From an uncultured Colwellia sp. (lineage in GTDB: Bacteria > Pseudomonadota > Gammaproteobacteria > Enterobacterales > Alteromonadaceae): a stretch of 64,000 nt of DNA. The notes below the pieces were generated by a model. It was not told the origin of the DNA. It ran no database searches and was given only the letters and a program-made list of their open reading frames with translations. The translations under genes were made by a program, and so were the position numbers. The stretch covers positions 1 through 64,000 of the forward strand of contig CAJXQI010000002.1 in NCBI GenBank assembly GCA_913058395.1, given 5' to 3'. Shown piece after piece: positions 17,573 through 35,301 of the stretch (position 1 is the stretch's first letter; each line of letters opens with the position of its first letter).

Positions 17573-17934
17573 AAAATACTTCCTTTTAATCTAAATTCCA
17601 TGATAAATCATGTCACATTAATTCAGAGTTAGTAATTAATTTCAACTAACTGTTTGCTTTATATTTAAAAACTGATTAATATGCGCTCGTTCAATTATTC
17701 ACCACATCATTTCGAAGGTGAATTCATCAACTAACTGTGAAGGAGATAATATTATGACATTTACATCAACATCCTTTGCAGGTCTTATCCGATAAGAAGC
17801 TTGTAGCTTAGCCACATATTACCTAAGCACTTTAAAGTAGTTTCGCCCGGTTCATTTCGATAGAAATCCAGACCTGCCAATACGTATTACGTTTTAAATC
17901 CTAATTTTCTAATAATGAAAAAGGAATTGGTATT

Positions 17935-19125
17935 ATGGGCAAATCCGTCCAAAAAATTACTGAAAACGTTAGCCTCATTGCATCTACTGATACGTGGATT
18001 GAAGGGCTAGCGATACAGCAACTGATTAAAACATCAGAATTAAGTGGTATGCACAGCGTTGCTGGCATGCCTGATTTGCACCCAGGGAGAGGTTATCCCA
18101 TCGGTGCTGCATTTTTTACAACTAACAAAATTTACCCTGCGCTTGTAGGGAATGATATTGGCTGTGGCATGTCACTTTGGCAAACCTCAGCAAAAGTATC
18201 CAAAGTTAACTTAGATAAACTGGCTAAGAAGTTTGAGCATGTAGAGCAGCCTTTAGATGAAAGCTGGTCTGAAATTATTGAAAACCGAAAGACTGATAAA
18301 GGTATAACAACCGATAGCTATGATCGTGCTCTAGGCACCATTGGTGGCGGTAATCACTTTGCAGAATTTCAGGCCATCGATGAGGTGTATGACCAAATTG
18401 CGTTAGATGAGTTAGGGCTTAATAAAAAGCATTTACAGCTTCTTGTTCACTCAGGCTCTAGAGGTTTAGGTCAATCAATCTTGGTTGATCATATAACTAA
18501 GCATAACCACGATGGCTTAAACCTTGATGATAACGACTTTCAAGATTACATGGCCAAACATGATGAAGCGGTTCGTTGGGCTGAGCTAAATCGTGAACTG
18601 ATTGCCAAACGCTTTTTAGAAGCAATTAGAGCGAATGGTGACTGCGCATTAGACATTAACCACAACTTGGTTTCGTCAAAAAACATTGATGGTTGTGATG
18701 GCTGGCTACACCGCAAAGGCGCAACACCAAGTGATAAAGGTTATGTGGTTATACCTGGTTCACGCGGTGATTATAGCTATTTGGTGAAACCCATTACCTT
18801 GAATGAAAAGCTTAGTAATAGTGAAACTAGCGAAAACTTAAATACGAGCCTGTTTTCTTTAGCGCATGGCGCAGGTAGAAAGTGGAAACGTGGCGAGTGT
18901 CATGGCCGTCTAGGGCATAAATATAATCGTGAAGACTTATATCGCACCGCACTCGGTAGTCGAGTGGTTTGTGGCAATAAAGAGCTTTTGTATGATGAAG
19001 CACCGCAAGCTTATAAGAAATGTGAAACCGTTATCAGCGATATGGTTGATGCGGGGTTAATTGAGGTTATAGCTAAGCTACGTCCGGTATTAACCTTTAA
19101 AACAAATGGAGATTGTTCATCATGA
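17935..19125 (+). CDS. rtcB: RtcB-family RNA ligase, release-factor-H-coupled paralogue (RtcB2)
   Basis: [17 protein letters not shown] and GGGNHF metal-binding motifs; translationally coupled to prfH. Confidence 0.9.
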
Positions 19126-19763
19126 TATTACTACAACTGTCAGCAGGCCAAGGTCCTGTTGAGTGTTGCAAAGCTGTTGGTTTGGCGCTGAAAACAATTG
19201 AAAAACAATGTCGAGAGAAAGGAATAAAGCTCGATATTGTTGAAACCATTGCTTCCAAAGAGCGAGATTGTTTTAAGTCAGCTTTGCTGCAACTTGATTC
19301 AAAAAAGGCTGAGTCTGGAAAGGAAAGTTCAGCTAAGCAATTAGCCGAGTCATGGCAAGGAGCTATGTTATGGGTATGTCAAAGCCAATATAGGCCAAAA
19401 CATAAACGTAAAAACTGGTTCTTCAGTGTCCAAATGTATGAGGTCAATGATACCCAATTGGATAAAGGGGTAACATTTCAAGCATGCCGTGCTTCTGGTG
19501 CAGGCGGACAACATGTAAATACAACGGACTCGGCAGTTCGAGCTACTCATACTGAAACAGGTATTTCAGTACGTGTTGAAAGTGAGCGCAGCCAACATGC
19601 TAATAAGCGGTTATCGAGAGTATTGTTATTCCAGAAGTTGGAAGCAAAAAAACTTGAGCAAATGACACAACAAGAAAAAGCCCGTTGGCAACAGCACTGG
19701 GAAGTTGAACGTGGTAACCCAGTGAAAACATTTAAGGGTGTAAAGTTCACCCTGTCTTCATAG
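19122..19763 (+). CDS. prfH: peptide chain release factor homologue PrfH
   Basis: [17 protein letters not shown]-terminus as in E. coli PrfH; GGQ motif ([16 protein letters not shown]); start overlaps the rtcB2 stop. Confidence 0.9.
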
Positions 19764-19771
19764 GTGAATAT

Positions 19772-20125
19772 ATGTTGATACGAGTATCACCACAGGAGAA
19801 AAAGGTTCGTGATTATGTGAACCAGACTAAGAACTGTTACGGTGAAAATAATAAGAGTTCTAGAAAATCAATTCGATATCGAAAGGTAGCGGTAAATAGA
19901 AGTTACCGTAGAAATGCTCATAATATTTTAAACGTTGGTTACGTAGACATTGAAACCATAGAGGTAAGTTTATCGGCCCAATCAAGAAGTGATTGGCAAA
20001 AGTTTGCTGACGAATCTCTAATAGAGCACATGTCAGACTATAACCGAAACAGCTTAAAAGGTGAGCTTCAAAAAGAAGCCATTAAACGTATAAAGAAAAG
20101 TAATAAAAACACAGATCTAAACTGA
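19772..20125 (+). CDS. hypothetical basic protein (117 aa, Lys/Arg-rich), part of the rtcB2-prfH transcription unit
   Basis: ORF starts 9 nt after the prfH stop; high K/R content suggests nucleic-acid binding. Confidence 0.4.
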   Translation: MLIRVSPQEKKVRDYVNQTKNCYGENNKSSRKSIRYRKVAVNRSYRRNAHNILNVGYVDIETIEVSLSAQSRSDWQKFADESLIEHMSDYNRNSLKGELQKEAIKRIKKSNKNTDLN

Positions 20126-20378
20126 TATTACTTAATTGACAGAAAATGTCTTAAAAAGATCATTGCACTATTATTATTTAATAATTCCGTAGGAGGCAGA
20201 TATGTATTCCATTGAAAAAACATCGACTCAGAAAACTCGCCACTTGGTTGTTGAGTATTAGTTACTTCTAAAAGTTTCAACTCTCGATCAAGGGCTTATT
20301 TAAGCTTTTTATCAGCATCAGAAATTGCTAGGCCAACTTATTACTTGGTTATTAGTGGTTTTTGGTGTGGAGAGATCG

Positions 20379-20768
20379 ATGAATACATCAAAAAATATAT
20401 TGGAATGTTGTGCTTCGTTATGCGAAGGCGATGGCATTTCACCACGTCATGAAAAAAACAAAGAGAATTCTGTTGTTCATGACAATAGACGGCTGTGCCG
20501 TCAGGTTCAAAAACTTGTCCGTTTAGCCATTACTGAACTTGGTTTAGATGGATGGGATATCGTAAGTGTTAAACAAAAACAGGGGAAAACTACCTTAATC
20601 TTAACTATAGCGCCAACAGAGAATGCATCATTTTCAGACTGTGAATCGGCTTTGGAGTGGCTGAGGAGCCATCAAAATGAAATAAGGTTTATTGTTGCAA
20701 ATGGTATAAACAGAAAATCAGTTCCTGCACTGCACTTTGGGCTAGTAGCGGAGGCTGATTATGAATAA
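20379..20768 (+). CDS. RbfA-like (ribosome-binding factor A fold) protein, translationally coupled to RtcB3
   Basis: RRLCRQVQKLVRLAITELG...IVSVK...TTLILTI...RKSVPALHF aligns by eye with E. coli RbfA (RVAQEMQKEIALILQREI...TVSGVEMSRD...AKVYVTF...RLRIVPELTF); 8-nt overlap with rtcB3. Confidence 0.45.
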   Translation: MNTSKNILECCASLCEGDGISPRHEKNKENSVVHDNRRLCRQVQKLVRLAITELGLDGWDIVSVKQKQGKTTLILTIAPTENASFSDCESALEWLRSHQNEIRFIVANGINRKSVPALHFGLVAEADYE

Positions 20769-21882
20769 ATCAAAAGCAAGTTATCGCCATTGGTTAAGTG
20801 AAAAGCTTAGTCCTGAATTAGATCAACAAACTAAACGTTTACTGCATGCAAAAGGTGTGAAGCATGTGAGATTAATGGCTGATGCACATCTAGCCAACGA
20901 TGTTTGTGTTGGTTGTGTTTTGGCAACTGAAAAGCTGATATATCCGGCTGCAATTGGTGGTGATATTGGGTGTGGCATGTTATCGGTGCCACTAGATATT
21001 GATGCAAACTTTATTCAAAGCCAGCAGGCTGAGTTAATTTTTAAAAACTTAACTCATATGGTTCCCATAATGAAGCAATCTCAAGGTATTTCCTTTGAGT
21101 TAGATAAAAAATTATCTAATGAAAGGTTGCAACATATCGCCTTACGAGATGGATGTTATCAATTAGGCACGTTGGGCCGAGGTAATCATTTTCTGGAGTT
21201 GCAACGATGTGTTGAGACAGGACAATTATGGTTAATGATACATACTGGGTCTCGCGGTATGGGGCCTGCAATTCGAGACTATCATTTACATCATGCCTCT
21301 GGAAAATCAGGTGGCCTTAAATACTTGGATATTGATAGTGAACAAGGAAAGGCTTACTACAACGACCTTGGGTGGGCAAGAGAATATGCCAATGCAAACA
21401 GACTGCAAATTTTAGAACGATGTAGAGCACTATTTAGTGACTTATTCTCAGTCTCGGTTGATGAAAACAGGATGATTCATTGTGATCACAACCACCTTGA
21501 TATGGCGACTCTAAATAAACAAGATCTACTAATTCACCGCAAAGGAGCATGCTCGGTAACGAAAGGAGAAACAGCAATAATTCCCGGAAGTATGGGAAGT
21601 GACAGCTTTCATGTTATTGGAAAAGGAAATGCTGATTCGCTGTTTTCTAGTTCTCATGGCGCTGGTCGATGTATGAGCAGACAACTAGCTAGGAAAACTA
21701 TCACAAGTAATAATTTGAGCAAACAACTTTCAGGTATTTACTACCAACAAGAGAAATTACGTTTGCTGACTGAAGAAGCCCCAACCAGTTACAAGAATAT
21801 TGAAAAGGTAATGTCGTTACAGAAAAAGTTAGTCAAAGTGACTAGGCGATTAAGTCCTGTTTTAAGTTACAAAGGCACTTAA
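20761..21882 (+). CDS. rtcB: RtcB-family RNA ligase, third paralogue (RtcB3, 373 aa)
   Basis: GGDIGCGM, GRGNHFLE and HTGSRG motifs. Confidence 0.85.
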   Translation: MNKSKASYRHWLSEKLSPELDQQTKRLLHAKGVKHVRLMADAHLANDVCVGCVLATEKLIYPAAIGGDIGCGMLSVPLDIDANFIQSQQAELIFKNLTHMVPIMKQSQGISFELDKKLSNERLQHIALRDGCYQLGTLGRGNHFLELQRCVETGQLWLMIHTGSRGMGPAIRDYHLHHASGKSGGLKYLDIDSEQGKAYYNDLGWAREYANANRLQILERCRALFSDLFSVSVDENRMIHCDHNHLDMATLNKQDLLIHRKGACSVTKGETAIIPGSMGSDSFHVIGKGNADSLFSSSHGAGRCMSRQLARKTITSNNLSKQLSGIYYQQEKLRLLTEEAPTSYKNIEKVMSLQKKLVKVTRRLSPVLSYKGT

Positions 21883-21889
21883 ACCGTAT

Positions 21890-21925
21890 TGAAGTAGGCT
21901 AGAAATACTAGCCTACTTTTTTATA
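21890..21925. terminator. rho-independent terminator (AGTAGGCTAG..CTAGCCTACT followed by TTTTTT)
   Basis: Perfect 10-bp stem followed by a T-run. Confidence 0.6.
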
Positions 21926-22749
21926 GTAATGACTTTTTTTCTCCGCTTTAATTTTAGGTCGTACTTTTTAAGTTTTTTGCCTGTAGAAGAAATAGTGATG
22001 TACCCTTGAAGCTCACATACGTCATGAGCACTATCATCAGTTGAAGACAAAATATCAGCAGTAGCATATATAGATGCTGTATTTTTAGTGGTGAAGTCTA
22101 ATTTTTTCAGTTCAATTCCGTCACACCAAAGATCCCTAGTTTCAGGGTTAATTGAAAGGTAATTACCTAAAAACCATTCAATATCCGATGGTAAAAATCC
22201 AAGACTAGAATCAGCTAAGCCTTCTTTAATAACGTAAAGCCCTGCGGCTACTTTTCTTTCATGACGTCTTGCATTGTTTTTTAATATGCGTTTGCAAGTA
22301 AATCTACGTTGTAAATTTTTTGAGCAATACATAAAGAATTCTACGTTGGGATCAGGCTCTAAAGTAGCTTCACGAACAATTTCATTCTCTAAAATTACCT
22401 CTAATTTAAGCTCAGAAACTTTGTATTCTTTATAACTATTATATTCACTATCTAATGTTGCTTTTGGTAATAGACCAACAAGACTTTCTTCCGATAACCC
22501 AATAAGCGACTCATCATAAATACAAAAGTCACTGGATGTGATTTTTATACGATCGAGTCTAAATTCATAGAATGAATCGAATTCAAGCTTTAAACCTAGT
22601 TTGTCATAACACCAAACTTCAGGCATGCAATCATCTTCTTTAGCATTCTGGTTTTTTATTTGTTCTGGTATACCAATAATTGATTGAACTTCCGCTCGAT
22701 TCATACCGAAAGTAATATTGCCAATACCGAATAAAGGACTAATTTTCAT
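21913..22749 (-). CDS. hypothetical protein (278 aa) within the RNA-repair cluster
   Basis: ORF only; lysine-rich C-terminus. Confidence 0.45.
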   Translation of the reverse strand: MKISPLFGIGNITFGMNRAEVQSIIGIPEQIKNQNAKEDDCMPEVWCYDKLGLKLEFDSFYEFRLDRIKITSSDFCIYDESLIGLSEESLVGLLPKATLDSEYNSYKEYKVSELKLEVILENEIVREATLEPDPNVEFFMYCSKNLQRRFTCKRILKNNARRHERKVAAGLYVIKEGLADSSLGFLPSDIEWFLGNYLSINPETRDLWCDGIELKKLDFTTKNTASIYATADILSSTDDSAHDVCELQGYITISSTGKKLKKYDLKLKRRKKVITIKK

Positions 22750-22844
22750 TTTAATTTAGCTAGGTGCTAAAGAGAGTTTTTTAAGATAAACCAATGTACC
22801 ATTTAACTTTTTATTATCAATAGAAACTATGATTTTAGATATTG

Positions 22845-23435
22845 TTAGGGTTTTCTATTAGCTCGTTTGTATTTAGCTTGGTATTCACGCCTCTGCTTCG
22901 TAACTTCATAAAGCACTATCCCCGTGGTTGTGGCTAAATTTAAGCTCTCAATCATTCCAAACATTGGTATTGATATGCAGGATTCACTTCTTTCAACAAC
23001 AATATCGCTTACACCACGAGATTCATTACCAAACCAAACAGCAAGTTTTGGTTGAGTATAATCAGCCTCGTGAAGCACATAGTTTTCCTTCCCCTTTATA
23101 TGAGGTGACGTCACTAAAGATATAAATCTATTTTTCTCAAGATGTTCTAAGCATTCTTCAGTGCTATTAAAGCGCTTAACAAAAGTCCATTTCGAAGCTG
23201 AAACAGATATTTTTGAAAGTGATTTACGTTCTCTCAATTCTTCCCAATCATCAGGTAGGGATTGCCTAGAATCTACAACGTAAATTTTTTCTACGCCAAG
23301 TGCATTGGCATTTCTAATCACAGAGCCTATGTTTTTTATATCCATAGGATTCTCTAGGACAGCGATTAAATTTTTACATTGGTATTCTTTAATTTCATCC
23401 GCCCGTTGGCGAATGGTACTCTTTGAATTATTCAT
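22845..23435 (-). CDS. SpoU/TrmH-family RNA 2'-O-ribose methyltransferase
   Basis: LIAVLENPMDIKNIGSVIRNANALGVEKIYVV (SPOUT motif 1) and C-terminal knot motifs. Confidence 0.8.
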   Translation of the reverse strand: MNNSKSTIRQRADEIKEYQCKNLIAVLENPMDIKNIGSVIRNANALGVEKIYVVDSRQSLPDDWEELRERKSLSKISVSASKWTFVKRFNSTEECLEHLEKNRFISLVTSPHIKGKENYVLHEADYTQPKLAVWFGNESRGVSDIVVERSESCISIPMFGMIESLNLATTTGIVLYEVTKQRREYQAKYKRANRKP

Positions 23436-23478
23436 ATTCTCTCGGTTCTGCGGTAAAAAGCCAAATAGAAATTAACAG

Positions 23479-23961
23479 CTACAATCCTATACGTTCCATT
23501 TCTGCCATTGATTTAAGATTCATTTTTTCCAGCTTTTCATAATTTTTATTTTTTGAAAATATAGGTGTGATGTACCCGTCTTCATGACTATAAGTCATGC
23601 ACCATGCGAAATTTTTAGGAAATATATGAACTTCATTCCCATGACAGTTTTTAATAGGCTTGGTTCTTGACACGTAAATTACCTTTTCATTTTCACCAAA
23701 GTTGTCTTCCATAATGTAGTAGCTAGGTGCTGCATGACGTTCATACTTTTCCTGTGCTTCTTCTTGAAAGAAATCTCCAGTCATATTCTCCCACAAAGTG
23801 TTCATACAGTACTTTAAGCCTCGAAAAGAAGTAATTGAAGGGCAAAAAATAGTGAGCCACTTTTGCCCAATGATTAGCGCTTTATCATCTTCAATGGATT
23901 CGTATTTTTGAATAGATAAATCTTTAATTACTTTGGGTGTTTTCATAGCTATTTCTTCCAA
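23479..23961 (-). CDS. hypothetical protein (160 aa)
   Basis: ORF only. Confidence 0.4.
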   Translation of the reverse strand: MEEIAMKTPKVIKDLSIQKYESIEDDKALIIGQKWLTIFCPSITSFRGLKYCMNTLWENMTGDFFQEEAQEKYERHAAPSYYIMEDNFGENEKVIYVSRTKPIKNCHGNEVHIFPKNFAWCMTYSHEDGYITPIFSKNKNYEKLEKMNLKSMAEMERIGL

Positions 23962-23998
23962 TAAATGTCATACCTTCGAACACATCAAAACCATTAAA

Positions 23999-24019
23999 AA
24001 ATCACCCGCATGTGGCGGG
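23999..24019 (-). terminator. rho-independent terminator after the nucleotidyltransferase gene (CACCCGC ACAT GCGGGTG followed by a T-run on the minus strand)
   Basis: Hairpin seen in sequence. Confidence 0.55.
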
Positions 24020-24025
24020 TGGTTT

Positions 24026-24847
24026 CTAATTTGACTGTAATACCTCAAGAAATAACTCATTCAAAACATCAAACCCAACAGTTCTCTCGTTAGACTTTTC
24101 ACCATACCTTTCAAGACGTTCAAGTTCAGCTTCAATGAACTTATTGAGTACTGGTATTGCTGGCGCGACTTCTTTCTCTAGGCTAACTCGCTTGCGTTCC
24201 AATAATTTAGATATTTCTGCATCAAGTAGCTTATCGTCTGCAACCAACGTTCTTAGCTGATCAAAAACTATAGGCGCAGGCTCGTTGTACTTCTCTATCC
24301 ATTTAATGGCTAATAACGGTCGTAGTACGTAAAAGTACTTTTTGAGCGGCACCATGTCGCTTTTCAAATACCCACGATAGTTAGTCTTAGCCATACTACG
24401 GTAGTGATAAACTCCTTTTGCATTGGAATAGACACTTGTTATCAAATCTCTAGCTTTTGCGGCAAAATGATTATCATCAACATACACGATTGGCGACTGT
24501 AACCATTCAACTATGGCAGGGTTGGATTTCCAAAAAAGCTTTAATGCTTTTCGGATATCCCAGCCATTGATATCTATCTCATCAACAATCGGATATTCGA
24601 TAACATCACGTTTGTCTTCAAGGTTAACCGCTAAGTACCAGTCTTTAGGATGAGCATATATAAACCTAACATCAAAATCGCTATTTGGAGATTCAAATCC
24701 CCATGCGCGGCTACCAGACTCAATAGCATAGAGTATTTTGACTCCATGCTCGGCTTCTGCCGCCTTTATTCTGCGTAAGATTTCTTTTTGAACATCTTCG
24801 TCTATTTTATTCTTTTGTCTTTGTAAATTATTAGATTCCATTTTCAT
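24026..24847 (-). CDS. Pol-beta-superfamily nucleotidyltransferase (RlaP-like; predicted RNA-repair associated)
   Basis: ESGSRAWGFESPNSDFDVRFIY: GS...D.D NTase catalytic motif; sits immediately after cca with zero intergenic gap. Confidence 0.55.
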   Translation of the reverse strand: MKMESNNLQRQKNKIDEDVQKEILRRIKAAEAEHGVKILYAIESGSRAWGFESPNSDFDVRFIYAHPKDWYLAVNLEDKRDVIEYPIVDEIDINGWDIRKALKLFWKSNPAIVEWLQSPIVYVDDNHFAAKARDLITSVYSNAKGVYHYRSMAKTNYRGYLKSDMVPLKKYFYVLRPLLAIKWIEKYNEPAPIVFDQLRTLVADDKLLDAEISKLLERKRVSLEKEVAPAIPVLNKFIEAELERLERYGEKSNERTVGFDVLNELFLEVLQSN

Positions 24848-26116
24848 CTACCTAAGAGCTATCCGCTCATTTTCTGTTTTACTCTCTGCTAAAAAAACAC
24901 GTAAAGACTTTATTTCAGCTTCACGTACAGCACCACCTATATCAGGGCCTTTTTTTCCTTGTGAAATTGCCAATTGTACAGCGGCTTTTTTATCCAACTG
25001 AGTTAACGCGTTTAGTAATGATTGCGCTAATAACAATTGTGGGTAAGCTCTATTAACAAAGGTTTCTCCTCTGCCTTGAGCATCACATAAACATGCTTGG
25101 AGAAACTGCTTAAAACGTATTGGATGCTCTAGTGCGTTCATATTTTCAATGATTAATTTGTGCAATTTTTTTGGCGTAAGCTCAAATAGCTTGTGGCATC
25201 TTGTATGATTATCACTGGTTAAGATGGCTAACGCTTTCAATCGATTGGGCACTTTTAGCCGTTCACAAAATGCTTCAATAACTGCAATACCTTCATGTTC
25301 ATGACCTAGCAAATTTCCTCGTTCTTGATGGCAATAAGCTTTACCAAAATCATGAGTTAATGCTGCAAATCGAGTGTCAATATCAAAACTTAAATCCGCT
25401 GCTCGCTTCACAACGAGCATTGTATGTGTATAAACATCACCTTCTGGGTGATGGTTTTCAGGCTGTGGTACACCTACCATTGCTTCTAATTCTGGGAATA
25501 TTCCTAACCCGTTAAGCGCTTCAAAAAATAATTGCGGATGTTTTTCACCAAGCGCTTTTTCAGTTTCTTTCCATACACGCTCAGACACTAAATGAGTTAA
25601 TTCACCATTATCCCTAAGCTGTTTCATAAGCGCATATGTATCAGGATGAATTGTCCATTCTTCACCGTACCGGGCTAGAAAGCGAGCAACACGCAGTACA
25701 CGCACAGGGTCTTCTGCAAAAGCATTAGTTGTGTGTCTTAATACCTTATTTTTTAAATCTGTTTGGCCATTAAAAGGGTCGATAACTTTGCCATCACCAT
25801 TTAACGCCATTGAATTTATGGTTAAATCGCGTCTAGCTAAATCTTCTTCTAAAGTAACGGATGTGCTGGCGTCTACTGCAAAACCTGTATACCCCTTACC
25901 ATTTTTTCGCTCTTTACGTGCTAAGGCATATTCATCTTTAGTTTCTGGGTGCAAGAAAACAGGAAAATCACTTCCGACGGATTGAAAACCTAGTGATGCC
26001 ATTGTTTCTGTTGTTTCACCCACAACAACATAATCTTGGTCTTTTGATTTATGGCCAAGTAACGAGTCCCTAACTGCGCCTCCTACTAAATAGACATTTT
26101 CCAATTTCTTATTCAT
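24848..26116 (-). CDS. cca: multifunctional CCA tRNA nucleotidyltransferase with HD phosphohydrolase domain
   Basis: NVYLVGGAVRDSLLG...DQDYVV head domain; HD domain (HTMLV...LTHDFGK). Confidence 0.9.
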   Translation of the reverse strand: MNKKLENVYLVGGAVRDSLLGHKSKDQDYVVVGETTETMASLGFQSVGSDFPVFLHPETKDEYALARKERKNGKGYTGFAVDASTSVTLEEDLARRDLTINSMALNGDGKVIDPFNGQTDLKNKVLRHTTNAFAEDPVRVLRVARFLARYGEEWTIHPDTYALMKQLRDNGELTHLVSERVWKETEKALGEKHPQLFFEALNGLGIFPELEAMVGVPQPENHHPEGDVYTHTMLVVKRAADLSFDIDTRFAALTHDFGKAYCHQERGNLLGHEHEGIAVIEAFCERLKVPNRLKALAILTSDNHTRCHKLFELTPKKLHKLIIENMNALEHPIRFKQFLQACLCDAQGRGETFVNRAYPQLLLAQSLLNALTQLDKKAAVQLAISQGKKGPDIGGAVREAEIKSLRVFLAESKTENERIALR

Positions 26117-26180
26117 TACTTTTCCATTACCTTCTTTATTAGATTTGGCAATCCGCTTTTTTGATTAATATTTATTAATC

Positions 26181-27215
26181 TTACTCTAGTGAAACCCTCC
26201 ACAATGTATCAGTTAATTGCTTCAACAGGATCTCTTTTCCTAAAAGTTGTTTAATAACATCAACATTGGTCGATGTATGCAAGCTTGGCTTTGTTGTTGT
26301 AAAACTTCCACTTCCCGCCAACGCAATCAATAATAACAATTGATCGGCTAAGTGCTCTTCAACAGCAGCTTGAGCATAAATATACTTATTTACTCTCCCA
26401 GCAGCCCGTTTTGCTACTCTTTCTGCCGAAACACCCAACTCGCCAACAACCTCAAATACATTGCGATGTGTTTTACTATCAATACATAACTGAAAACTAT
26501 TACCTGGGCCAGGGGTAGTGACTTCCTGAACTTGACCTAAAGCATCCTGCCAATCAAGAATTTCCTGAGCCTTTGTAATTTCTCTTTGCCCTATACTTGC
26601 TGGCAGTAAGCTTATCAGAGCATTAAGAGAGCAATTATCCATATCACTAGCAAAATCACATCCTGCATCAGTCAAATGAATTGGCTTTAATGCTTGGGTT
26701 GGCTCAATAACAATTTGCCATTTACCACCGCCAGCAGGATAAAAACCTAACGTAGAAATACGAACGTTGCAGTTCACTCCCATACTTTTTAACACAGGCA
26801 AAAATGATTGTTCCAAAAAACTCAATGAAGGAGACATACCATTATGTGTACCCCCCTCAAATGTAATCGTTGAACTTCCCTTTGCTAATGCCAATACGGG
26901 TAAAATAGTCTGACACACGAGAACCGTACTTCCTGCGGTGCCAATGGCAAATTGAAAATTGCCTGACTTAACTTTCCCAGGAGAAAATCTGATGCGAGTT
27001 GAGCCAAGTTCAACACCTTCTGTAATAGCACCACAAATTTCTTGTGCTGCTAAAACGGAAGTTAAATGTTGACGTAACAAGCCTGTTTTCTTTCTTCCTG
27101 CTCTGATATTTATCAGTTCGATGTTTTGCTGAGTAAAAATAGATAGTGTTAGTGCCGTCCTTAGCACCTGACCACCACCTTCTCCTTGTGAACCATCGAT
27201 TATCATGTATTTCAT
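26181..27215 (-). CDS. rtcA: RNA 3'-terminal phosphate cyclase
   Basis: IIDGSQGEGGGQVLRTALTLS signature. Confidence 0.9.
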   Translation of the reverse strand: MKYMIIDGSQGEGGGQVLRTALTLSIFTQQNIELINIRAGRKKTGLLRQHLTSVLAAQEICGAITEGVELGSTRIRFSPGKVKSGNFQFAIGTAGSTVLVCQTILPVLALAKGSSTITFEGGTHNGMSPSLSFLEQSFLPVLKSMGVNCNVRISTLGFYPAGGGKWQIVIEPTQALKPIHLTDAGCDFASDMDNCSLNALISLLPASIGQREITKAQEILDWQDALGQVQEVTTPGPGNSFQLCIDSKTHRNVFEVVGELGVSAERVAKRAAGRVNKYIYAQAAVEEHLADQLLLLIALAGSGSFTTTKPSLHTSTNVDVIKQLLGKEILLKQLTDTLWRVSLE

Positions 27216-27240
27216 TATTTATCCTTCATAATCGTTAACA

Positions 27241-28464
27241 TTAACCTTTAACGCATACTATCTGTTTCAAGGTGTATACTACTTCAACAAGATCCTTTTG
27301 TGCTTCCATCACCTTTTCAATATCTTTGTATGCGTGCGGTATTTCATCAATTACTGAGGCATCCTTTCTACACTCCACACCTTCTGTCGCTGCAATTTGA
27401 TCATCAACGTTATAGACCTTTTTTGCCTTTGTTCTAGACATTACTCTACCTGCACCGTGACTACAGCTATTGAAACTTTCAGGATTTCCTAAACCTCTTA
27501 CAATAAATGATTTAGCCCCCATACTGCCGGGAATAATGCCCATTTCACCTTTTTCAGCACGAACTGCGCCTTTTCTTGTGACATAACAATCCTTACCAAA
27601 GTGATGCTCACGCGAGATATAGTTATGATGACAATTTACTGCTAAATCAGCCGTTGAAAACTCAATAGGTAATTGCTTTCTTAGAGCGGCAATAGCATTG
27701 AACATCATTATTTCACGATTCTTTAAAGCAAAGTCTTGTGCCCACTCAACAGCTTCAACATAATCATCAAAATAGTCACTTCCTTCTTCAAGGTAAGCCA
27801 AGTCCATATCTGGCAAATTAATTTGATGACGTTGCATTTCTTTTTTCGCTAACTCGATAAAGTAAGTACCAATTCTATTCCCAACTCCACGACTACCTGA
27901 ATGCAACATGATCCAAACCGCATCATTTTCATCTAGGCAAAGCTCTAAGAAATGATTTCCAGTACCCATAGTACCTAAATGCTTCACATTATTACTTTTT
28001 TTAATGGCTGGATGTTTTTCACAAATCCGTTCAAATCTCGCCTGTAACTTCAACCACTCACCCGCAACTACATCAGGTACGTTATGCCAAGAACCTCTAT
28101 CTGCTCGGCCTCTACCACTAGTTCGTCCATGTGGGACAGCAGCTTCAAAAGCATGTCTTATCGCAGATAAATTATCTGGCAACTGACTGGCTGTTAATGT
28201 TGTTTTGGTAGCGACCATACCACAACCAATATCTACACCAACTGCTGCTGGAATTACTGCTTCCACTGATGGGATAACACTTCCAATAGTCGCACCTTTA
28301 CCTAGATGTACATCAGGCATTACCGCGATATGTGAATGAACCAATGGCATAGTCGCAATGTTATTTAGCTGTTGCTGAGCTTGCTCTTCAAATGGAACAC
28401 CTTTAGTCCATGCTTTGATTGTCGCTCTTCCTTCATTTTCAATAACGTTATAATTTCTACACAT
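27241..28464 (-). CDS. rtcB: RtcB RNA ligase (canonical, 407 aa)
   Basis: MPDVHLGKG, GVDIGCGM and GTGNHFLE motifs. Confidence 0.9.
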   Translation of the reverse strand: MCRNYNVIENEGRATIKAWTKGVPFEEQAQQQLNNIATMPLVHSHIAVMPDVHLGKGATIGSVIPSVEAVIPAAVGVDIGCGMVATKTTLTASQLPDNLSAIRHAFEAAVPHGRTSGRGRADRGSWHNVPDVVAGEWLKLQARFERICEKHPAIKKSNNVKHLGTMGTGNHFLELCLDENDAVWIMLHSGSRGVGNRIGTYFIELAKKEMQRHQINLPDMDLAYLEEGSDYFDDYVEAVEWAQDFALKNREIMMFNAIAALRKQLPIEFSTADLAVNCHHNYISREHHFGKDCYVTRKGAVRAEKGEMGIIPGSMGAKSFIVRGLGNPESFNSCSHGAGRVMSRTKAKKVYNVDDQIAATEGVECRKDASVIDEIPHAYKDIEKVMEAQKDLVEVVYTLKQIVCVKG

Positions 28465-28553
28465 TATTTTTTCCTTAATTCTCTTCTACTTTTTAGTAAG
28501 CGGGCTACAGCTAATTCTGTAGCCCTTTGTCTTATGTTTGCGTTATGTGCTGG

Positions 28554-29708
28554 CTAGGCTATTTTTACTACGCCATTCATCAAGCCTTCCAAACCACCGT
28601 AGACGGTTAAGCTATCAATTCTCTCGGCTACTTTTTCAAGTGCTTCTAACTCTTTTAAGCGCATCAGCGTAGGGTTGTTTTCCATTACCTTCGCTGTGTT
28701 ATGCAAGCTTCTAGTCGCTGAAGTTTCTTCACGCCTTTTGATCACATTAGCTTCAGCCGCTTTTTGCGCTTCTACTACCTGATTTAATATTGCTTTCATT
28801 TCACCGGGTAAAATGATGTCCTTCACACCAACACTCAAAAGAGATATACCAATGTCTGCCAAACGCTCAACCACTAGTTCTTTTACTGTTTCATTGACAT
28901 ACAATTTATCCAAAAGGATATCATCTAATGATTTAGTACCAACCGCTTCTCTTAAAGCTAATTGCAGAGTTTTATAAACAAAATCATCTACTTTATCGAC
29001 ACTACGTGCCGCAAGCTCAGCGTCATGCACTTTAATGTTCGCACTTAAATTTATTCGCAAACTTACTCTGTCTTTACTCAGGATTTCCTGTCCAGAAATC
29101 TCAAGCAATTGTGTTCTGCAATCAAAAGACTTTAACTCAATGGCATGGTTAAACTGCCAAAAACCATGCTGACCAGGCACTAACCTTTTGATCAATTGTC
29201 CATTAACATACAACAAACCGACATGATCTTTAGCGACATTCAAATCAGCAATAGGCTTCACTGCGACTGTTCGCTCACTTCTTATCAATCGTGTCGATGT
29301 ATTTGCACCAGCCCGATTAATTAAGAAAAGTGTTTTATCATCTACATCTATATTTTCATCAATAGACAATTTTTCTAATCTTATTTCGCCAGCATCTTTC
29401 CATAGATATAAATGCTCGCTTGGCGCAACTACACCTCTAAGCAAGTCGTTAACATACAACATACCTACCTCGGTACTGTCTAGTTTCCAGTGAGAAATAT
29501 GCTCATTTAATTCTTTATGATTTCGGTATAACCTTTCTGCATTTTTTTCTGAAAAATACAGCGTATTGATATCAAAAGTGACAAAGTCTAGCTCATTCTT
29601 GATATCCCAAATTTTGTGTTTTCCTGGTGTTAGTACTCTGTCTAGTTCTTGATTTTTAAACACCAAAACTCTTTGATTTTCTGCTACTAATTTAGTTTTT
29701 CTAAACAT
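28554..29708 (-). CDS. SPFH/Band-7 (slipin-like) domain protein without TM anchor; first gene of the sigma-54 rtc operon
   Basis: C-terminal half shows a Band-7 profile (VGVKDIILPGEMKAILNQVVEAQKAAEAN); N-terminal half has an internal repeat. Confidence 0.7.
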   Translation of the reverse strand: MFRKTKLVAENQRVLVFKNQELDRVLTPGKHKIWDIKNELDFVTFDINTLYFSEKNAERLYRNHKELNEHISHWKLDSTEVGMLYVNDLLRGVVAPSEHLYLWKDAGEIRLEKLSIDENIDVDDKTLFLINRAGANTSTRLIRSERTVAVKPIADLNVAKDHVGLLYVNGQLIKRLVPGQHGFWQFNHAIELKSFDCRTQLLEISGQEILSKDRVSLRINLSANIKVHDAELAARSVDKVDDFVYKTLQLALREAVGTKSLDDILLDKLYVNETVKELVVERLADIGISLLSVGVKDIILPGEMKAILNQVVEAQKAAEANVIKRREETSATRSLHNTAKVMENNPTLMRLKELEALEKVAERIDSLTVYGGLEGLMNGVVKIA

Positions 29709-29800
29709 CTTTAATTTCCTTATTTAATCCTCTTTCGAGGAGGTGTTAGTAAGGGTTGAATACTTATTTGATAAAGGCCCAAAACTTTATTGTTATGGGG

Positions 29801-29816
29801 AGCATCCTGCTTGCCA
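29801..29816 (-). promoter_or_regulatory. sigma-54 (-24/-12) promoter candidate for the SPFH-rtcB-rtcA-cca operon
   Basis: Minus strand reads TGGCAA-GCAGG-ATGCT versus consensus TGGCAC-N5-TTGCW; about 95 nt upstream of the SPFH start; divergent RtcR is a sigma-54 activator. Confidence 0.4.
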
Positions 29817-29888
29817 GTACTTATTAGTTCTTGGCGTTTATCAAACATTGGTACTAACTACTTACTAACGTTTCATTACATATCATCG

Positions 29889-29959
29889 TATAAAGGGTGG
29901 GAATTGAACCCACAACAAACGGGTTAAAGCCGCTGCTCTACCAATTGAGCTACCTGTAT
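29889..29959 (-). ncRNA. tRNA-like element 1 (71 nt, no CCA, acceptor mismatch, anticodon loop reads UUA if 7-nt)
   Basis: Folds by eye: acceptor ATACAGG/CCTTTAT (1 mismatch), D-arm GCTC-AATTGGTA-GAGC, T-arm GTGGG-TTCAATT-CCCAC; conserved U8 A9 G18G19 TTC. Confidence 0.5.
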
Positions 29960-30027
29960 TTAAGGAAGGATTCGAACCTTCGCCCAACAGCACGAAGCTG
30001 TTGCTCTATCCTCTGAGCTACTTAAAT
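29957..30027 (-). ncRNA. tRNA-like element 2 (71 nt, no CCA, 5-nt anticodon loop or 4-bp stem with anticodon UCG)
   Basis: Perfect acceptor ATTTAAG/CTTAAAT, D-arm GCTC-AGAGGATA-GAGC, anticodon arm ACAGC-TTCGT-GCTGT, T-arm GAAGG-TTCGAAT-CCTTC. Confidence 0.5.
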
Positions 30028-30029
30028 AG

Positions 30030-30100
30030 TTATTAAGATGGGAATCGAACCCATGACTGACGAAATCAATTCGCTGCTCTACCTACTGAGCTACTTAATA
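30030..30100 (-). ncRNA. tRNA-like element 3 (71 nt, no CCA, shortened anticodon loop)
   Basis: Perfect acceptor TATTAAG/CTTAATA, D-arm GCTC-AGTAGGTA-GAGC, anticodon arm GCGAA-TTGAT-TTCGT, T-arm ATGGG-TTCGATT-CCCAT. Confidence 0.5.
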
Positions 30101-30356
30101 TTTGTTTGATTAGGTATACGCATTTGCATTGCTTAGCGCACCAGTGTGACTTTTTGAATCACATCCTATTAATCAGACACTTAAGTTATTACAAGTCATG
30201 TGCCAAGATAATTTAAACCGTAAAAAAAATAATTAACCTGTTGTTTATATATGAGAAATTATGTGTTGCCGTGTGTTTTATATGTTTTAAGTTGAATTAA
30301 AAACCACTAGTAGATATCATTAAGGATATTTAATCTATCTATATGGATATGCTGTA

Positions 30357-31958
30357 GTGAAGAATACTGTTGTTGTGAGTTTGATAGGAACTCAATTAGA
30401 CTATGTTGGTAAAAGAGTTGATAAATGGGCCAAATGGCGACCTAATGTCAGTTTGTGTAGCCAGGAAGACTTAATAGTTAGTCAGCTTCATATGTTGCAT
30501 GATAATCATAGCAGTCGTCTTGCTAATAATGTGGCTGTAGATATTGAATCTGTTTCTCCTGAAACTAATGTTTCATTACATCAAGTCAATTTTCGCGACC
30601 CTTGGGATTTTGAAGAAGTTTATGCCAAACTTTTCGATTGGTGCCAAGAGCAAAAATTCGATACCGATCAAAATGATTATTTATTCCATATAACAACAGG
30701 CACTCACGTTGTTCAGATTTGTAGTTACCTCCTTACAGAGAGTCGTCACTTTCCAGGCCGCCTAATTCAAACATCACCCGATCACAACAATAAAAACAAA
30801 TCGATTGGCCGTATACAAATTATCGATTTAGATCTATCTAAATATGACCAATTAGCTACAAGGTTTGACGTTGAACACCAAGAAGGTAAAGAGTTCTTAA
30901 AAGGTGGTATTGAGACTAAAAATAAGGCTTTTAACAGACTCATTACTCAGATAGAAAAAGTCGCTATTCGATCACAAGATCCCATGTTGTTAACTGGACC
31001 AACAGGAGCTGGTAAAAGCCAGCTAGCAACACGTATATTCCAATTAAAGAAAAAGCGCTCGATGTTAAAAGGCACATTAGTCTCGGTGAACTGTGCAACC
31101 TTAAAAGGTGAAAATGCTATGGCAGCATTGTTTGGCCATACCAAAGGAGCATTCACAGGTGCAGTAAAATCTAGAGATGGTTTTTTGCTTAGGGCTAATA
31201 ACGGTGTTTTGTTCTTGGATGAAATTGGTGAACTTGGCTTGGAAGAACAAGCCATGCTGCTACATGCTATAGAAAATAAAACTTTCCACCCTGTGGGCAG
31301 TGATACGCCAGTTCAAAGTAATTTTCAACTAATCGCAGGAACCAATAGAGATTTAAAACAGGAGATTGAAAAAGGGTCTTTCCGTGAAGATTTATTAGCT
31401 CGTATTAACCTTTGGACATATGAGTTACCTGCGCTTAAAGATAGAAAAGAAGATATTCCTGTTAACGTTGACTATGAGATAGATCTTTTTGCCAAAAAAA
31501 CAGGGCACCGTGTGCAATTTAACAAAGAAGCACAAAGTACCTTTATTGGCTTCTCTACTTCTAACGAGGCGCTATGGTCTGGGAACTTTCGTGATTTAAG
31601 CTCTGCGATAACCCGGCTGTGTACTTTGGCAGATTCTTCTAGAATCACTGTAGATGATGTCGAAGAAGAAGTAGAACGATTAAAACGAGCATGGAACCCA
31701 TCAGGCCAGCAATCAACTAACAATATTTTATATAAGTACCTTCTAAAGGAACAAGTTGAAAATTTAGATACGTTTGATGCTAACCAACTTAGGTATGTAC
31801 TTGATACATGCCAACGCCATAATAGTATGGCCTCAGCAGGTAGAGAGCTATTTGATGTTAGCCGAATCTTAAAATCTCAACCAAATGATTCCAGCCGCCT
31901 ACAGAAGTACTTGAGTAAATTTGGTTTGAAATGGGCGGATATTTTAGCAAAAAGTTAG
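30357..31958 (+). CDS. rtcR: RtcR, sigma-54-dependent transcriptional activator with N-terminal CARF-like sensor domain
   Basis: GTG start; N-terminus MKNTVVVSLIGTQLDYVG as in E. coli RtcR; AAA+ sigma-54 interaction domain (LTGPTGAGKS, GVLFLDEIGEL). Confidence 0.9.
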   Translation: MKNTVVVSLIGTQLDYVGKRVDKWAKWRPNVSLCSQEDLIVSQLHMLHDNHSSRLANNVAVDIESVSPETNVSLHQVNFRDPWDFEEVYAKLFDWCQEQKFDTDQNDYLFHITTGTHVVQICSYLLTESRHFPGRLIQTSPDHNNKNKSIGRIQIIDLDLSKYDQLATRFDVEHQEGKEFLKGGIETKNKAFNRLITQIEKVAIRSQDPMLLTGPTGAGKSQLATRIFQLKKKRSMLKGTLVSVNCATLKGENAMAALFGHTKGAFTGAVKSRDGFLLRANNGVLFLDEIGELGLEEQAMLLHAIENKTFHPVGSDTPVQSNFQLIAGTNRDLKQEIEKGSFREDLLARINLWTYELPALKDRKEDIPVNVDYEIDLFAKKTGHRVQFNKEAQSTFIGFSTSNEALWSGNFRDLSSAITRLCTLADSSRITVDDVEEEVERLKRAWNPSGQQSTNNILYKYLLKEQVENLDTFDANQLRYVLDTCQRHNSMASAGRELFDVSRILKSQPNDSSRLQKYLSKFGLKWADILAKS

Positions 31959-32768: not shown

Positions 32769-33161
32769 ATGAAAGCACTTTTGATATGGAGAAAAATAAT
32801 GAAATTAATAAGTTACCAAAGAAGCGCAACTAAAAAATATAGCTCTAAAGCTAACTCTGTTAAAAAACAAAGATCTGCATGTAAATTTTGGGCAATTAAG
32901 AATAAGCACGAAATAATAGAACAATATCAAGATGATGGATTTGGAAGTTTCTCCCAACTAGCTCCATGTTTTCAACAAATCATAAGGGCAATAAAGCAAG
33001 GCAACCCGAATTTCGAAGGTATAGTAGTTCATTCATACTCAAGAATATCTCGAAATTTACTCAATTTGATTCAAGTAAAACAATTCCTCAAAGATCAAAG
33101 TATTACATTATTTTCAGTTACTGAGTATTGTCCAATCATACCTAATAATAAAGAAGAGTAG
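32769..33161 (+). pseudogene. serine recombinase fragment (part of the resolvase catalytic domain)
   Basis: GIVVHSYSRISRNLLNLIQVKQFLKDQSITLFSVTE parallels VIVYALNRISRDLLILLKGVEHLEKHNVQLFSVIE of the intact integrase at 33645. Confidence 0.5.
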
Positions 33162-33241
33162 CATGAGAAGAGTTATCTCTAAAATACAAGTAAATGGAGG
33201 TTAGTCTCTAGCTAGACAAATCATTTAATCAGGAGAAGAAA

Positions 33242-33412
33242 ATGAAACATACAAAATACATGATAACTGAATCAAACGGCCCTGTAACAGAGCGGCCTAA
33301 ATGCTCTTGTTGTAATTCTAATTTGTATATTATTAAGGGTAGGAGTGGAAAATATAAATATTACATATGCAAAGAATTACTTAAAAAGACGACGTTAAAG
33401 AATAATAAATAG
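33242..33412 (+). pseudogene. serine integrase fragment (zinc-ribbon segment; duplicated RBS/leader of the intact integrase)
   Basis: Leader catttaatcaggagaagaaaATGAAAC repeats catttTGtcaggagaagaTaATGAAAC at 33627; encodes KCSCCNSNL..GKYKYY, cf. integrase aa about 300. Confidence 0.4.
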
Positions 33413-35219: not shown

Positions 35220-35301
35220 GATAGAGATTTGAACTCTAGAAGGGCTACAAACCCTTGCCGGTTTTCAAGACCGGTGCTTTCGACCACTCAGCCATCTCAC
35301 C
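35211..35301 (-). tRNA. tRNA-Ser (anticodon UGA), class II with long variable arm, CCA encoded
   Basis: Folded by eye: acceptor GGTGAGA/TCTCACC, discriminator G, CCA; anticodon stem CCGGT/ACCGG, loop CTTGAAA; T-arm TAGAG-TTCAAAT-CTCTA. Confidence 0.9.

Follow-up and report, generated by a model that had tools for sequence, protein, structure and literature searches.

The stretch of DNA analysed here, 64,000 nt from the genome of an uncultured Colwellia sp. (GCA_913058395.1, contig CAJXQI010000002.1; hereafter the window), carries between positions 17,935 and 31,958 a cluster of RNA-repair genes with three different RtcB RNA ligases. We checked the gene calls against the list of open reading frames (ORFs) and by Pfam, NCBIfam, Rfam and ARAGORN searches of the window, and the resulting features are collected in Table 1. 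An earlier account of the locus made from the letters alone (the sequence-only reading) had named the protein genes well. Pfam hidden Markov model searches placed the three RtcB proteins, PrfH, a SpoU methyltransferase, RlaP, a CCA-adding enzyme with an HD domain, RtcA, an SPFH/Band-7 protein and the activator RtcR at the positions it gave, and the Pol-beta nucleotidyltransferase that it described as abutting cca does so, with the Cca ORF ending at 24848 and RlaP starting at 24847. Its weakest assignment, a protein resembling the ribosome maturation factor RbfA, falls below threshold as a sequence match and was borne out by predicted fold, through an AlphaFold model and its structural matches in the PDB. 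Four ORFs (117, 147, 278 and 160 amino acids [aa]) belong to no family by sequence; for those of 117, 278 and 160 aa, searches of Pfam, NCBIfam, PHROGs and the sequences of the PDB gave nothing significant.

All three RtcB copies keep the metal-binding Asp/Cys/His residues and the SHGAGR motif with the histidine nucleophile, as judged from an alignment of the paralogues. They are only 28–37% identical pairwise (RtcB3 is 28% identical to RtcB2 and 33% to RtcB1), which argues that they are old paralogues brought together rather than recent duplicates. The gene content is that of RtcB-centred RNA-repair systems, which are thought to answer ribotoxin damage, much as had been suggested. The picture of clustered RtcB-centred repair modules is upheld, but not that of one toolkit; we count at least four units.

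Table 1. Features of the RNA-repair cluster and of the adjoining recombinase/tRNA-Ser junction, in order of position in the window
Feature	Position	Strand	Basis
RtcB2, PrfH-associated RNA ligase	17935-19125	+	Pfam RtcB 239 bits, 2e-70; TIGR03073 release_rtcB 525 bits (cut-off 272)
PrfH, release-factor homologue, overlaps end of rtcB2 (19113-19125)	19113-19763	+	Pfam RF-1; TIGR03072 prfH 257 bits (cut-off 167); GGQ motif
u117, very basic 117-aa protein after prfH	19772-20125	+	Pfam, NCBIfam: no significant family match
RbfA-like protein, 129 aa, Cys-containing N-terminal extension, 8-nt overlap with rtcB3 start	20379-20768	+	Predicted fold
RtcB3, third RtcB subfamily	20761-21882	+	Pfam RtcB 268 bits, 2.6e-79; below every NCBIfam subfamily cut-off
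12-bp terminator-like hairpin between convergent rtcB3 and u278	21891-21919		Terminator scan
u278, 278-aa protein	21913-22749	-	Pfam, NCBIfam, PHROGs, PDB: no match; beside SpoU in L006, L007
SpoU/TrmH-like RNA 2'-O-methyltransferase	22845-23435	-	Pfam SpoU_methylase 100 bits
u160, ~155-160 aa	23479-23961	-	No significant match; conserved in L001, L093
Intrinsic terminator directly after rlaP	24003-24021	-	7-bp stem, 6 G-C pairs, then ATTTTTT
RlaP nucleotidyltransferase	24026-24847	-	PF10127 293 bits, profile positions 2-248 of 249
Multifunctional CCA-adding/repair enzyme (Cca) with HD domain	24848-26116	-	Pfam PolyA_pol, RNA-binding and HD; NF008137 489 bits (cut-off 451)
RtcA, RNA 3'-phosphate cyclase	26181-27215	-	Pfam RTC 7.7e-75, RTC_insert
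RtcB1, canonical RtcB ligase	27241-28464	-	Pfam RtcB 430 bits, full length
Soluble SPFH/Band-7 (slipin) protein	28554-29708	-	Pfam Band_7 100 bits
Small hairpin just upstream of Band-7 ribosome-binding site	29728-29741	-	Stem changes compensatory between genera (alignment by inspection)
125-nt hairpin RNA, apex GCAAGCnGGAnGCUCCC	29745-29869	-	Folding, covariation, covariance model
tRNA-like RNA 3, nearest Band-7, 7-nt loop, 'anticodon' UUA	29888-29959	-	ARAGORN; covariance model R1 79 bits
tRNA-like RNA 2, 5-nt anticodon loop	29956-30027	-	ARAGORN; Rfam tRNA 61.4 bits
tRNA-like RNA 1, 5-nt anticodon loop	30029-30100	-	ARAGORN; Rfam tRNA 60.9 bits; covariance model R1 85 bits
Structured 5' leader, ~76 nt: closing stem and two hairpins	30101-30180	-	Alignments; 12/23 pairs compensatory
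Sigma-54 -24/-12 promoter TGGCAC-N5-TTGT	30191-30205	-	Read from sequence
RtcR, CARF-domain sigma-54 activator, divergent from operon	30357-31958	+	Pfam RtcR 6.8e-81, Sigma54_activat
Large serine recombinase (33645-35219, +) abutting tRNA-Ser(UGA) (35211-35301, -)	33645-35301		Pfam, ARAGORN, Rfam

The largest unit is the one controlled by RtcR, whose gene diverges from a sigma-54 promoter that stands ahead of rtcB1 and rtcA. The motif is the sole credible one in the cluster. From its position and that of the strong terminator behind rlaP, which like the other promoter and terminator calls come from consensus scans, the RtcR operon most likely extends on the minus strand from 30205 to ~24000, comprising a leader, the tRNA-like RNAs, a hairpin, Band-7, RtcB1, RtcA, Cca and RlaP. 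It would end at rlaP, with the remaining genes forming separate units; the terminator in particular argues that SpoU lies outside. Within the operon, RlaP matches its family over the full length of the profile, and Cca combines a nucleotidyltransferase head with an HD domain and scores above the equivalog cut-off for the multifunctional enzyme.

We compared the cluster with 80 fetched loci, each encoding a Band-7 relative, among which 44 marine gammaproteobacterial loci (L001–L044) served as the main comparison set for the rtc operon. A core of rtcR, tRNA-like RNAs, Band-7, RtcB1 and RtcA is common to the 44, while Cca, RlaP, u160, SpoU and u278 are variably present. In nearly all of them the same sigma-54 motif lies ~85–145 nt (mostly ~90–105 nt) upstream of the first detected tRNA-like RNA. 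The operon proteins are unusually similar across genera, with Band-7 80–95% identical, and the closest named relative, Colwellia psychrerythraea GAB14E, shares 87% nucleotide identity over 9.1 kb. Three more distant loci (L046, L049 and L051) have the order rtcR, rtcB, rtcA, tRNA-like RNA, Band-7, and L051 has its sigma-54 motif upstream of rtcB; this altered order suggests that the RNA/Band-7 pair moves as a unit within the operon. In the window, the spacer between Band-7 and rtcB1 holds a 9-bp G+C-rich palindrome (28502–28525) that is terminator-like on the plus strand and may be a processing or attenuation site inside the operon.

The non-coding start of the operon, including the three tRNA-like genes at 29888–30100, was overlooked in the sequence-only reading, although nothing else in the operon is as distinctive. 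It comprises ~470 nt, made up of a 76-nt leader, three tRNA-like RNAs arranged head to tail between rtcR and the Band-7 gene, and a 125-nt hairpin, and it is kept across ~45 marine gammaproteobacterial loci. More widely, tRNA-like genes are found just upstream of Band-7 and on the same strand in essentially all 80 loci, which include Gammaproteobacteria, Myxococcota, Acidobacteria and Cyanobacteria, and the pairing is kept in phyla that lack rtcB nearby and have a different gene order. With a tRNA-like gene directly upstream of an SPFH/Band-7 gene, in the same orientation, and a linked RNA ligase, the window conforms to the Band-7/b7a-tRNA arrangement as defined in a preprint from the Wolin laboratory (bioRxiv 10.1101/312249). 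According to that preprint, the 'band 7-associated tRNA' beside RtcB and a Band-7 protein was a prediction of Burroughs and Aravind (2016), and it was without experimental validation as of 2018.

The tRNA-like cloverleaf is supported by covariation, with 93.7% of cells paired as compared with 67% in shuffles. Across 33 Band-7-proximal copies there is no variation in the D and T arms and covariation in the acceptor stem, while the loop of the anticodon arm is free in both length and sequence. A decoding tRNA would have a 7-nt loop with U33 and an anticodon stable among orthologues; copies 1 and 2 of the window have 5-nt loops, and loop length and 'anticodon' vary among orthologues. A clear case of such free drift is seen in L065–L069 (Acidobacteria), where, ~330 nt upstream of Band-7, the 'anticodons' UGG, UGG, UGU and CGU are carried on an unchanged tRNA-like body. 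The combination of invariant D and T arms with hypervariable loops argues that these RNAs are not decoders; to judge from the alignments, their conserved surface is the elbow, as in the YrlA RNA of Salmonella. Some copies encode a 3' CCA (L001 9597–9671, L005 9732–9807, L011 1801–1875, L013 9685–9757, L020 9733–9811 and L028 2266–2337). The three in the window do not, though their operon has its own CCA-adding enzyme. Directly upstream of a Band-7 homologue, two metagenome-assembled genomes, one of Myxococcota (L050 79–1534) and one gammaproteobacterial (L055 4237–9633), have arrays of 14 and 20 tRNAs with ordinary anticodons, which recall the stress-induced arrays of cyanobacteria (PMC8421152).

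A likeness to YrlA is also found between the units. The Rfam YrlA family (RF02553) gave two subthreshold matches (33 and 32.4 bits against a gathering cut-off of 69; E 3e-5 in a small search), and these occur only across unit junctions, where the T arm and 3' acceptor strand of one unit run into the 5' acceptor strand and D arm of the next. This junction order of adjacent units is the permuted order of YrlA.

Behind the third tRNA-like unit, the 179-nt spacer that holds the hairpin has a minimum free energy of -48.7 kcal/mol (z -5.4). In 26 diverse loci the hairpin measures 123–126 nt and its apex is nearly invariant; the 17-nt apex motif is exact in 33 loci. Compensatory changes occur in 34 of its 36 pairs in a plain MAFFT alignment, and 85% of cells are paired, as against 32–42% in slid-partner controls. 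A covariance model of the hairpin (R2) gave one match per locus, at the same position, in the window and in L001–L045 except L028, and zero further matches elsewhere in 1.56 Mb. Rfam held no matching family, and the model found no match in phyla beyond the marine Gammaproteobacteria; in those loci from distant phyla that were inspected, a partial tRNA-like element is followed at the same place by a longer, unrelated-looking hairpin. At the other end of the non-coding region, the leader spans 76–80 nt from the transcription start to the first tRNA-like unit and is conserved, with a covarying closing stem. An alignment of six genera shows conservation of the rtcR–Band-7 intergenic region from the promoter to the start codon. 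Folding of the whole 482-nt leader region gave alternative pairings between tRNA-like units, which we judged untrustworthy.

In its predicted structure, the Band-7 protein that follows has an N-terminal portion of ~150 aa rich in beta structure, then the SPFH core and a C-terminal helix of 60 residues; the model contains no transmembrane segment. Foldseek aligns the vault protein MVP over 400–468 columns of this model.

RtcB ligates and RtcA cyclises RNA ends, as established for these enzyme families. In Salmonella, RtcR senses 5' tRNA halves with 2',3'-cyclic-phosphate ends (PMC7790460). RlaP adds one or two nucleotides to damaged RNA 3' ends (PMC12776372). By analogy with Salmonella, we propose that the CARF domain of RtcR would bind cyclic-phosphate 5' tRNA halves and the sigma-54 promoter would then fire. 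Tandem tRNA-like units would be cut out by tRNA-processing enzymes, and these RNAs and the hairpin might assemble with oligomeric Band-7 into a ribonucleoprotein scaffold, a counterpart of the Ro60/Y RNA particle of Salmonella, that presents damaged tRNAs to the enzymes of the operon. RtcA would normalise 3'-phosphate ends, and where one or two nucleotides had been lost RlaP would put them back. Cca, through its HD and CCA activities, would restore 3' termini, and RtcB1 would seal the repaired RNA.

The tRNA-like RNAs could be given a different part in the response, as sentinels whose ribotoxin-cut 5' halves feed the CARF domain of RtcR in a positive feedback, or as decoys that soak up the toxins. 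Many Band-7-proximal copies have Lys, Asn, Met or Pro 'anticodons', and the tRNAs for these amino acids are targets of known anticodon nucleases. The binding of cyclic-phosphate 5' tRNA halves by RtcR (PMC7790460), the sponge role proposed for array-encoded tRNAs in Anabaena (PMC8421152) and the arrays of 14–20 tRNAs that some relatives have at the same place also fit. We nonetheless regard this alternative as unlikely. With their 5-nt loops, copies 1 and 2 of the window are unable to imitate an anticodon loop, and RNAs encoded downstream of an RtcR-dependent promoter should be scarce before induction. Moreover, the loop drifts freely among close relatives while the D/T elbow is invariant, which argues for the elbow, not the loop, as the functional surface.

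Nor does a role confined to the transcript itself account well for these elements. Located in a 5' untranslated region, all these elements from the leader to the hairpin might work solely in cis, as processing and stability signals (sites for RNase P/Z and RNase III) or in translational control of Band-7. The hairpin, being long and almost perfectly paired, could plausibly be cut by RNase III, the small hairpin lies beside the Band-7 ribosome-binding site, and tRNA-like punctuation of transcripts is known elsewhere, as the introduction of bioRxiv 10.1101/312249 describes. However, the constant 123–126-nt length and 17-nt apex of the hairpin suggest recognition by a specific protein, as does the invariant elbow of the tRNA-like units, and a pairing of tRNA-like RNA with Band-7 that extends across phyla fits a protein partnership better than a role in one mRNA. 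We consider action in cis alone distinctly improbable and favour RNAs that partner the Band-7 protein.

On the opposite strand, rtcB2 and prfH form a second unit of recognisable type: the genes overlap, both products score above the cut-offs of their equivalog models, and PrfH has the GGQ motif. In 11 of the 44 related loci PrfH is encoded convergently downstream and within 10 kb of the rtc operon (together with RtcB2 wherever the locus reaches), a recurrence which argues that the proximity is not due to chance. Homologues of the pair rescue and reseal ribosomes cut by colicin E3 (PMC9304027, PMC9223846, PMC13166195). On this precedent, ribosomes halted by cleavage of the 16S decoding centre would have their peptide released by PrfH and their rRNA resealed by RtcB2, and by homology the pair in the window is expected to protect against decoding-centre 16S cleavage. 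The u117 protein encoded behind prfH fits a class of charged PrfH/RtcB-associated proteins (PMC6514570) and is unrelated to the LMWPc-like ORF found at the same position in L006. A PHROGs match of u117 to a phage head-tail connector (E 1.8e-4) was judged spurious, the protein being basic and of low complexity.

The third unit joins RtcB3 to the RbfA-like protein, and we treat the two genes as a putative translationally coupled pair. With Pfam RBFA (PF02033) the protein scores 16.8 bits, below the cut-off of 34.7; hhalign against E. coli RbfA gave a probability of 5%, and a profile search of the PDB returned no relevant match. An AlphaFold (AF2) model of the family alignment reached a predicted local distance difference test score (pLDDT) above 90 in its core, and its best 19 PDB matches are all RbfA (1jos, E 8.5e-6, template modelling [TM] score 0.79; TM 0.79–0.81 over ~90 residues). 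The RbfA fold is confirmed at the level of this predicted structure. Close homologues, which form 19 clusters, are typically 129 aa long, and this length suggests that translation probably starts at the ATG at 20379 and not at the TTG at 20325.

A profile search of 1.84 billion representatives recovered 483 RbfA-like relatives at E<=1e-3. They carry an N-terminal extension with a conserved Cys and the motif DG-x-(D/S)-P-(R/K), and score around the Pfam RBFA threshold, with more distant family members at 25–39 bits; the broad family alignment was too diverse for scanning loci. Wherever the contig continues, an RtcB3-type gene lies directly downstream of the RbfA-like gene, usually overlapping it, except in L091. 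Such contexts are found in the window and in L081–L085, L087, L089 and L090, which include Aliikangiella and the metagenome contigs L082–L085, L087, L089 and L090, most of them with an RtcB2–PrfH pair within 6 kb. The order PrfH–u117–RbfA-like also occurs in L088 and L092. The best sigma-70-like site of this region lies between u117 and the RbfA-like gene, and we found no sigma-54 site for either RtcB2–PrfH or RbfA-like/RtcB3. A search of the accessible literature yielded no description of an RbfA–RtcB pairing. In the mechanism that we propose, the RbfA-like protein would dock at the binding site of RbfA on the 30S subunit, close to the 16S rRNA 3' minor domain, and hold or mark the broken 16S end, and RtcB3 would religate it on free subunits. 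Besides PrfH–RtcB2, ribosomes might thus be repaired by a second route, for which the pair supplies a concrete hypothesis.

The sequence-only reading had placed the cluster in an integrase-bounded island at tRNA-Ser. One boundary stands: the large serine recombinase abuts the 3' end of a true tRNA-Ser, housekeeping genes lie to the right of the tRNA, and the junction is likely the right edge of an island. The other 'integrases' of the window are fragments (32769–33161 and 9726–10274), and no direct (att-type) repeat of tRNA-Ser was found in 1–36000; the far end of the island may fall beyond the window. Left of the tRNA come the recombinase, the remnant of a second copy and the repair cluster, followed further left by metabolic genes, a recombinase fragment, NERD and DarT/Macro genes. 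In the remnant (32769–33400), a resolvase fragment of 130 aa is accompanied by 100 nt that match part of the intact recombinase gene at 78% identity, which suggests a decayed second recombinase copy and perhaps successive integrations. The far-left fragment (9726–10274) encodes 182 aa with only the 'Recombinase' domain of a serine recombinase. A NERD nuclease-related protein with a topoisomerase-type zinc ribbon is encoded at 8463–9239. A fusion of DarT and HD domains (7023–8366, minus strand) adjoins a Macro-domain protein with a DprA-like region (5899–7029); the latter two (5899–8366) look like a DarTG-type toxin–antitoxin or defence pair.

These surroundings bear on whether the modules serve general upkeep of RNA under stress, such as antibiotics or DNA damage, with no particular tie to bacterial or phage conflict. 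The Salmonella operon responds to DNA damage and tRNA hypomodification (PMC7790460), and rtcB is strongly induced by ribosome-targeting antibiotics (PMC7652931, PMC12606134). PADLOC gave zero matches among ten cluster proteins, and neither the Band-7 nor the RbfA-like protein was found in the viral contigs scanned, a result that gives the suggested counter-defence role no support in the phage sense. On the other hand, the modules sit in an island setting beside a serine recombinase and near DarT/Macro and NERD genes, they are swapped between close relatives, and they combine a patchy distribution with unusually high identity across genera; PrfH–RtcB2 homologues, moreover, specifically counter colicin E3. 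General stress upkeep strikes us as an improbable account of these modules.

The exchange of modules is concentrated at one place. The stretch between SpoU and PrfH is a swap site, which in the window holds u278, RtcB3, RbfA-like and u117. In Pseudoalteromonas and in a metagenome contig with a 100%-identical SpoU, the site instead contains an HD+kinase (Pnkp-like) protein, a 5'-P RNA ligase and an LMWPc-like ORF; the Pnkp-like HD+kinase and 5'-P RNA ligase occupy the variable slot in L006 and L093. In L001 (C. psychrerythraea GAB14E, 17044–19620), an 858-aa AAA_13 (PF13166) ATPase replaces u278, RtcB3 and RbfA-like. We take the AAA_13 family to include anticodon nucleases of the PrrC/RloC type, which would make this ATPase a possible RNA cutter inside a repair cluster. 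Such module exchange between close relatives fits an arms race with RNA-cutting toxins.

SpoU borders this site and does not behave as a member of the operon. It is present in three of the 44 related genome loci and in two near-identical metagenome contigs. Homologues 83–86% identical to it are part of integron-like cassette arrays that contain no repair genes. In Parashewanella tropica (L095, CP037951) the homologue lies among many small same-strand ORFs in an array beside a tyrosine integrase, and in Vibrio ostreicida (L096) among many small same-strand ORFs with a ParE/PhD pair nearby. Its closest solved relatives are the TrmH tRNA methyltransferases that modify Gm18 in the D loop. The terminator, the homologues in cassette arrays and the TrmH relatives together argue that SpoU is probably a mobile cassette landed beside the operon rather than a Hen1-like partner, which would be stably linked to a repair ligase; u160, SpoU and u278 may be cargo inserted after the operon terminator. 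The sequence-only reading had joined all these genes in one co-regulated heal-seal-methylate toolkit, with SpoU 2'-O-methylating the ligated junction against re-cleavage in the manner of Hen1. In its favour, no more than 14 kb hold the whole gene set, SpoU comes after rlaP not only in the window but also in L001, L006, L007 and L093, and known repair systems include protective methylases (Pnkp/Hen1). We nevertheless hold this to be very improbable given a terminator between rlaP and u160/SpoU, a single sigma-54 site with the other two RtcB units on the opposite strand, SpoU missing from 41 of the 44 related operons and found in integron-like arrays, and solved relatives that methylate G18 and not a ligation junction.

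Taken together, we consider it probable that at least four modules, each transcribed on its own, are pieced together here and that they handle broken translation RNAs, including the proposed scaffold and 30S-repair roles. Several observations weigh against this interpretation. The scaffold role of Band-7 and its RNAs is proposed by analogy, the Band-7 model is of moderate confidence (pLDDT 75.5), and its best structural matches are membrane stomatins. The RbfA-like protein is only 13–16% identical to RbfA, its ribosome binding is a prediction from fold, and in L091 no RtcB3 gene follows within the 1.6 kb downstream. Since the promoter and terminator were called from consensus, read-through into SpoU is possible, and the operon Cca may be either an extra copy or the sole one of the genome.

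A bolder combination of three claims would go further, and as a whole we think it rather unlikely. Band-7, the three tRNA-like RNAs and the hairpin would make up a cage-like ribonucleoprotein of the cytoplasm, equivalent in bacteria to Ro/Y-RNA and vault particles, that catches damaged tRNAs by the elbow for RtcB1, RlaP and Cca. Tandem tRNA-like units would be the evolutionary source of the permuted YrlA domain. And RbfA-like/RtcB3 would be an undescribed repair system dedicated to the 30S subunit, in which an assembly-factor fold guides a ligase to the broken 3' domain of 16S rRNA.

The repair of cut tRNA and rRNA in bacteria, as opposed to their replacement, is still poorly understood, and the role of non-enzymatic repair partners (Ro60/Y RNA, Band-7/tRNA-like RNA) is an open question in the field. 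As a test case the locus is compact and well conserved, and its RNA elements are defined: a leader, three tRNA-like units and a hairpin with an invariant apex. As a kind, the cluster is known from comparative genomics; RtcB-centred RNA-repair modules were surveyed by Burroughs and Aravind (NAR 2016). Measured at least against Rfam and the searchable literature, three features appear to be new: the composite non-coding start of the operon, with its leader, three orthologous tRNA-like types and hairpin with invariant apex, the YrlA-like junctions between tRNA-like units, and the RbfA-like/RtcB3 module. The 2016 survey lies outside the searchable literature, which makes prior description possible and these claims of novelty provisional.

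Among the systems to which the cluster can be compared, the eukaryotic vault offers an SPFH-like MVP shoulder with a long helix, in a cage-forming protein partnered with small structured RNAs, but stomatin is structurally closer to the Band-7 model and cage formation is not indicated here, so the resemblance serves as a lead only. Pnkp/Hen1 embodies the heal-seal-protect logic invoked in the sequence-only reading, and a Pnkp-like protein does occupy the variable slot of L006 and L093. The window, by contrast, has neither Pnkp nor Hen1, and its SpoU is not stably linked to repair genes; SpoU, moreover, belongs to a methyltransferase fold family (SPOUT) different from that of Hen1.

As in the rtcB2–prfH module of E. 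coli ATCC 25922, the two genes overlap in the window, where both products score above their NCBIfam equivalog cut-offs, but the pair in the window is followed by u117 and lies beside the RbfA-linked ligase, a neighbourhood that recurs in L081, L082, L083 and L090. With RbfA, a 30S maturation factor, the RbfA-like protein shares a KH-like fold and the C-terminal motif R-x-x-P-x-L-x-F; it differs in an extra N-terminal segment of ~30 aa and in being encoded with an RtcB ligase, whereas rbfA is canonically found in the context nusA–infB–rbfA.

The RtcR operon has two close counterparts. In the Band-7/b7a-tRNA/RtcB systems predicted by Burroughs and Aravind (2016), a tRNA-like gene precedes SPFH/Band-7 and rtcB and rtcA are under RtcR; RlaP and a CCA enzyme, both present in the window, often accompany them. 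A probable relative is the rtc locus of Pseudomonas aeruginosa, which includes PaFlo8 and RlaP. The window differs from these in its three tandem tRNA-like copies, of three orthologous types, and adds the 76-nt leader and 125-nt hairpin. The Salmonella rsr-yrlBA-rtcBA operon is likewise controlled by RtcR and sigma-54, has non-coding RNAs with tRNA-like modules encoded upstream of rtcBA within the operon, and shares a putative RNA-binding scaffold protein along with a conserved D/T elbow. In the window, Band-7 stands in place of Ro60 and Cca and RlaP are added; and while YrlA has a permuted tRNA-like domain plus a Ro-binding stem, the window units are ordinary cloverleaves that resemble it only at their junctions (33 against 69 bits).

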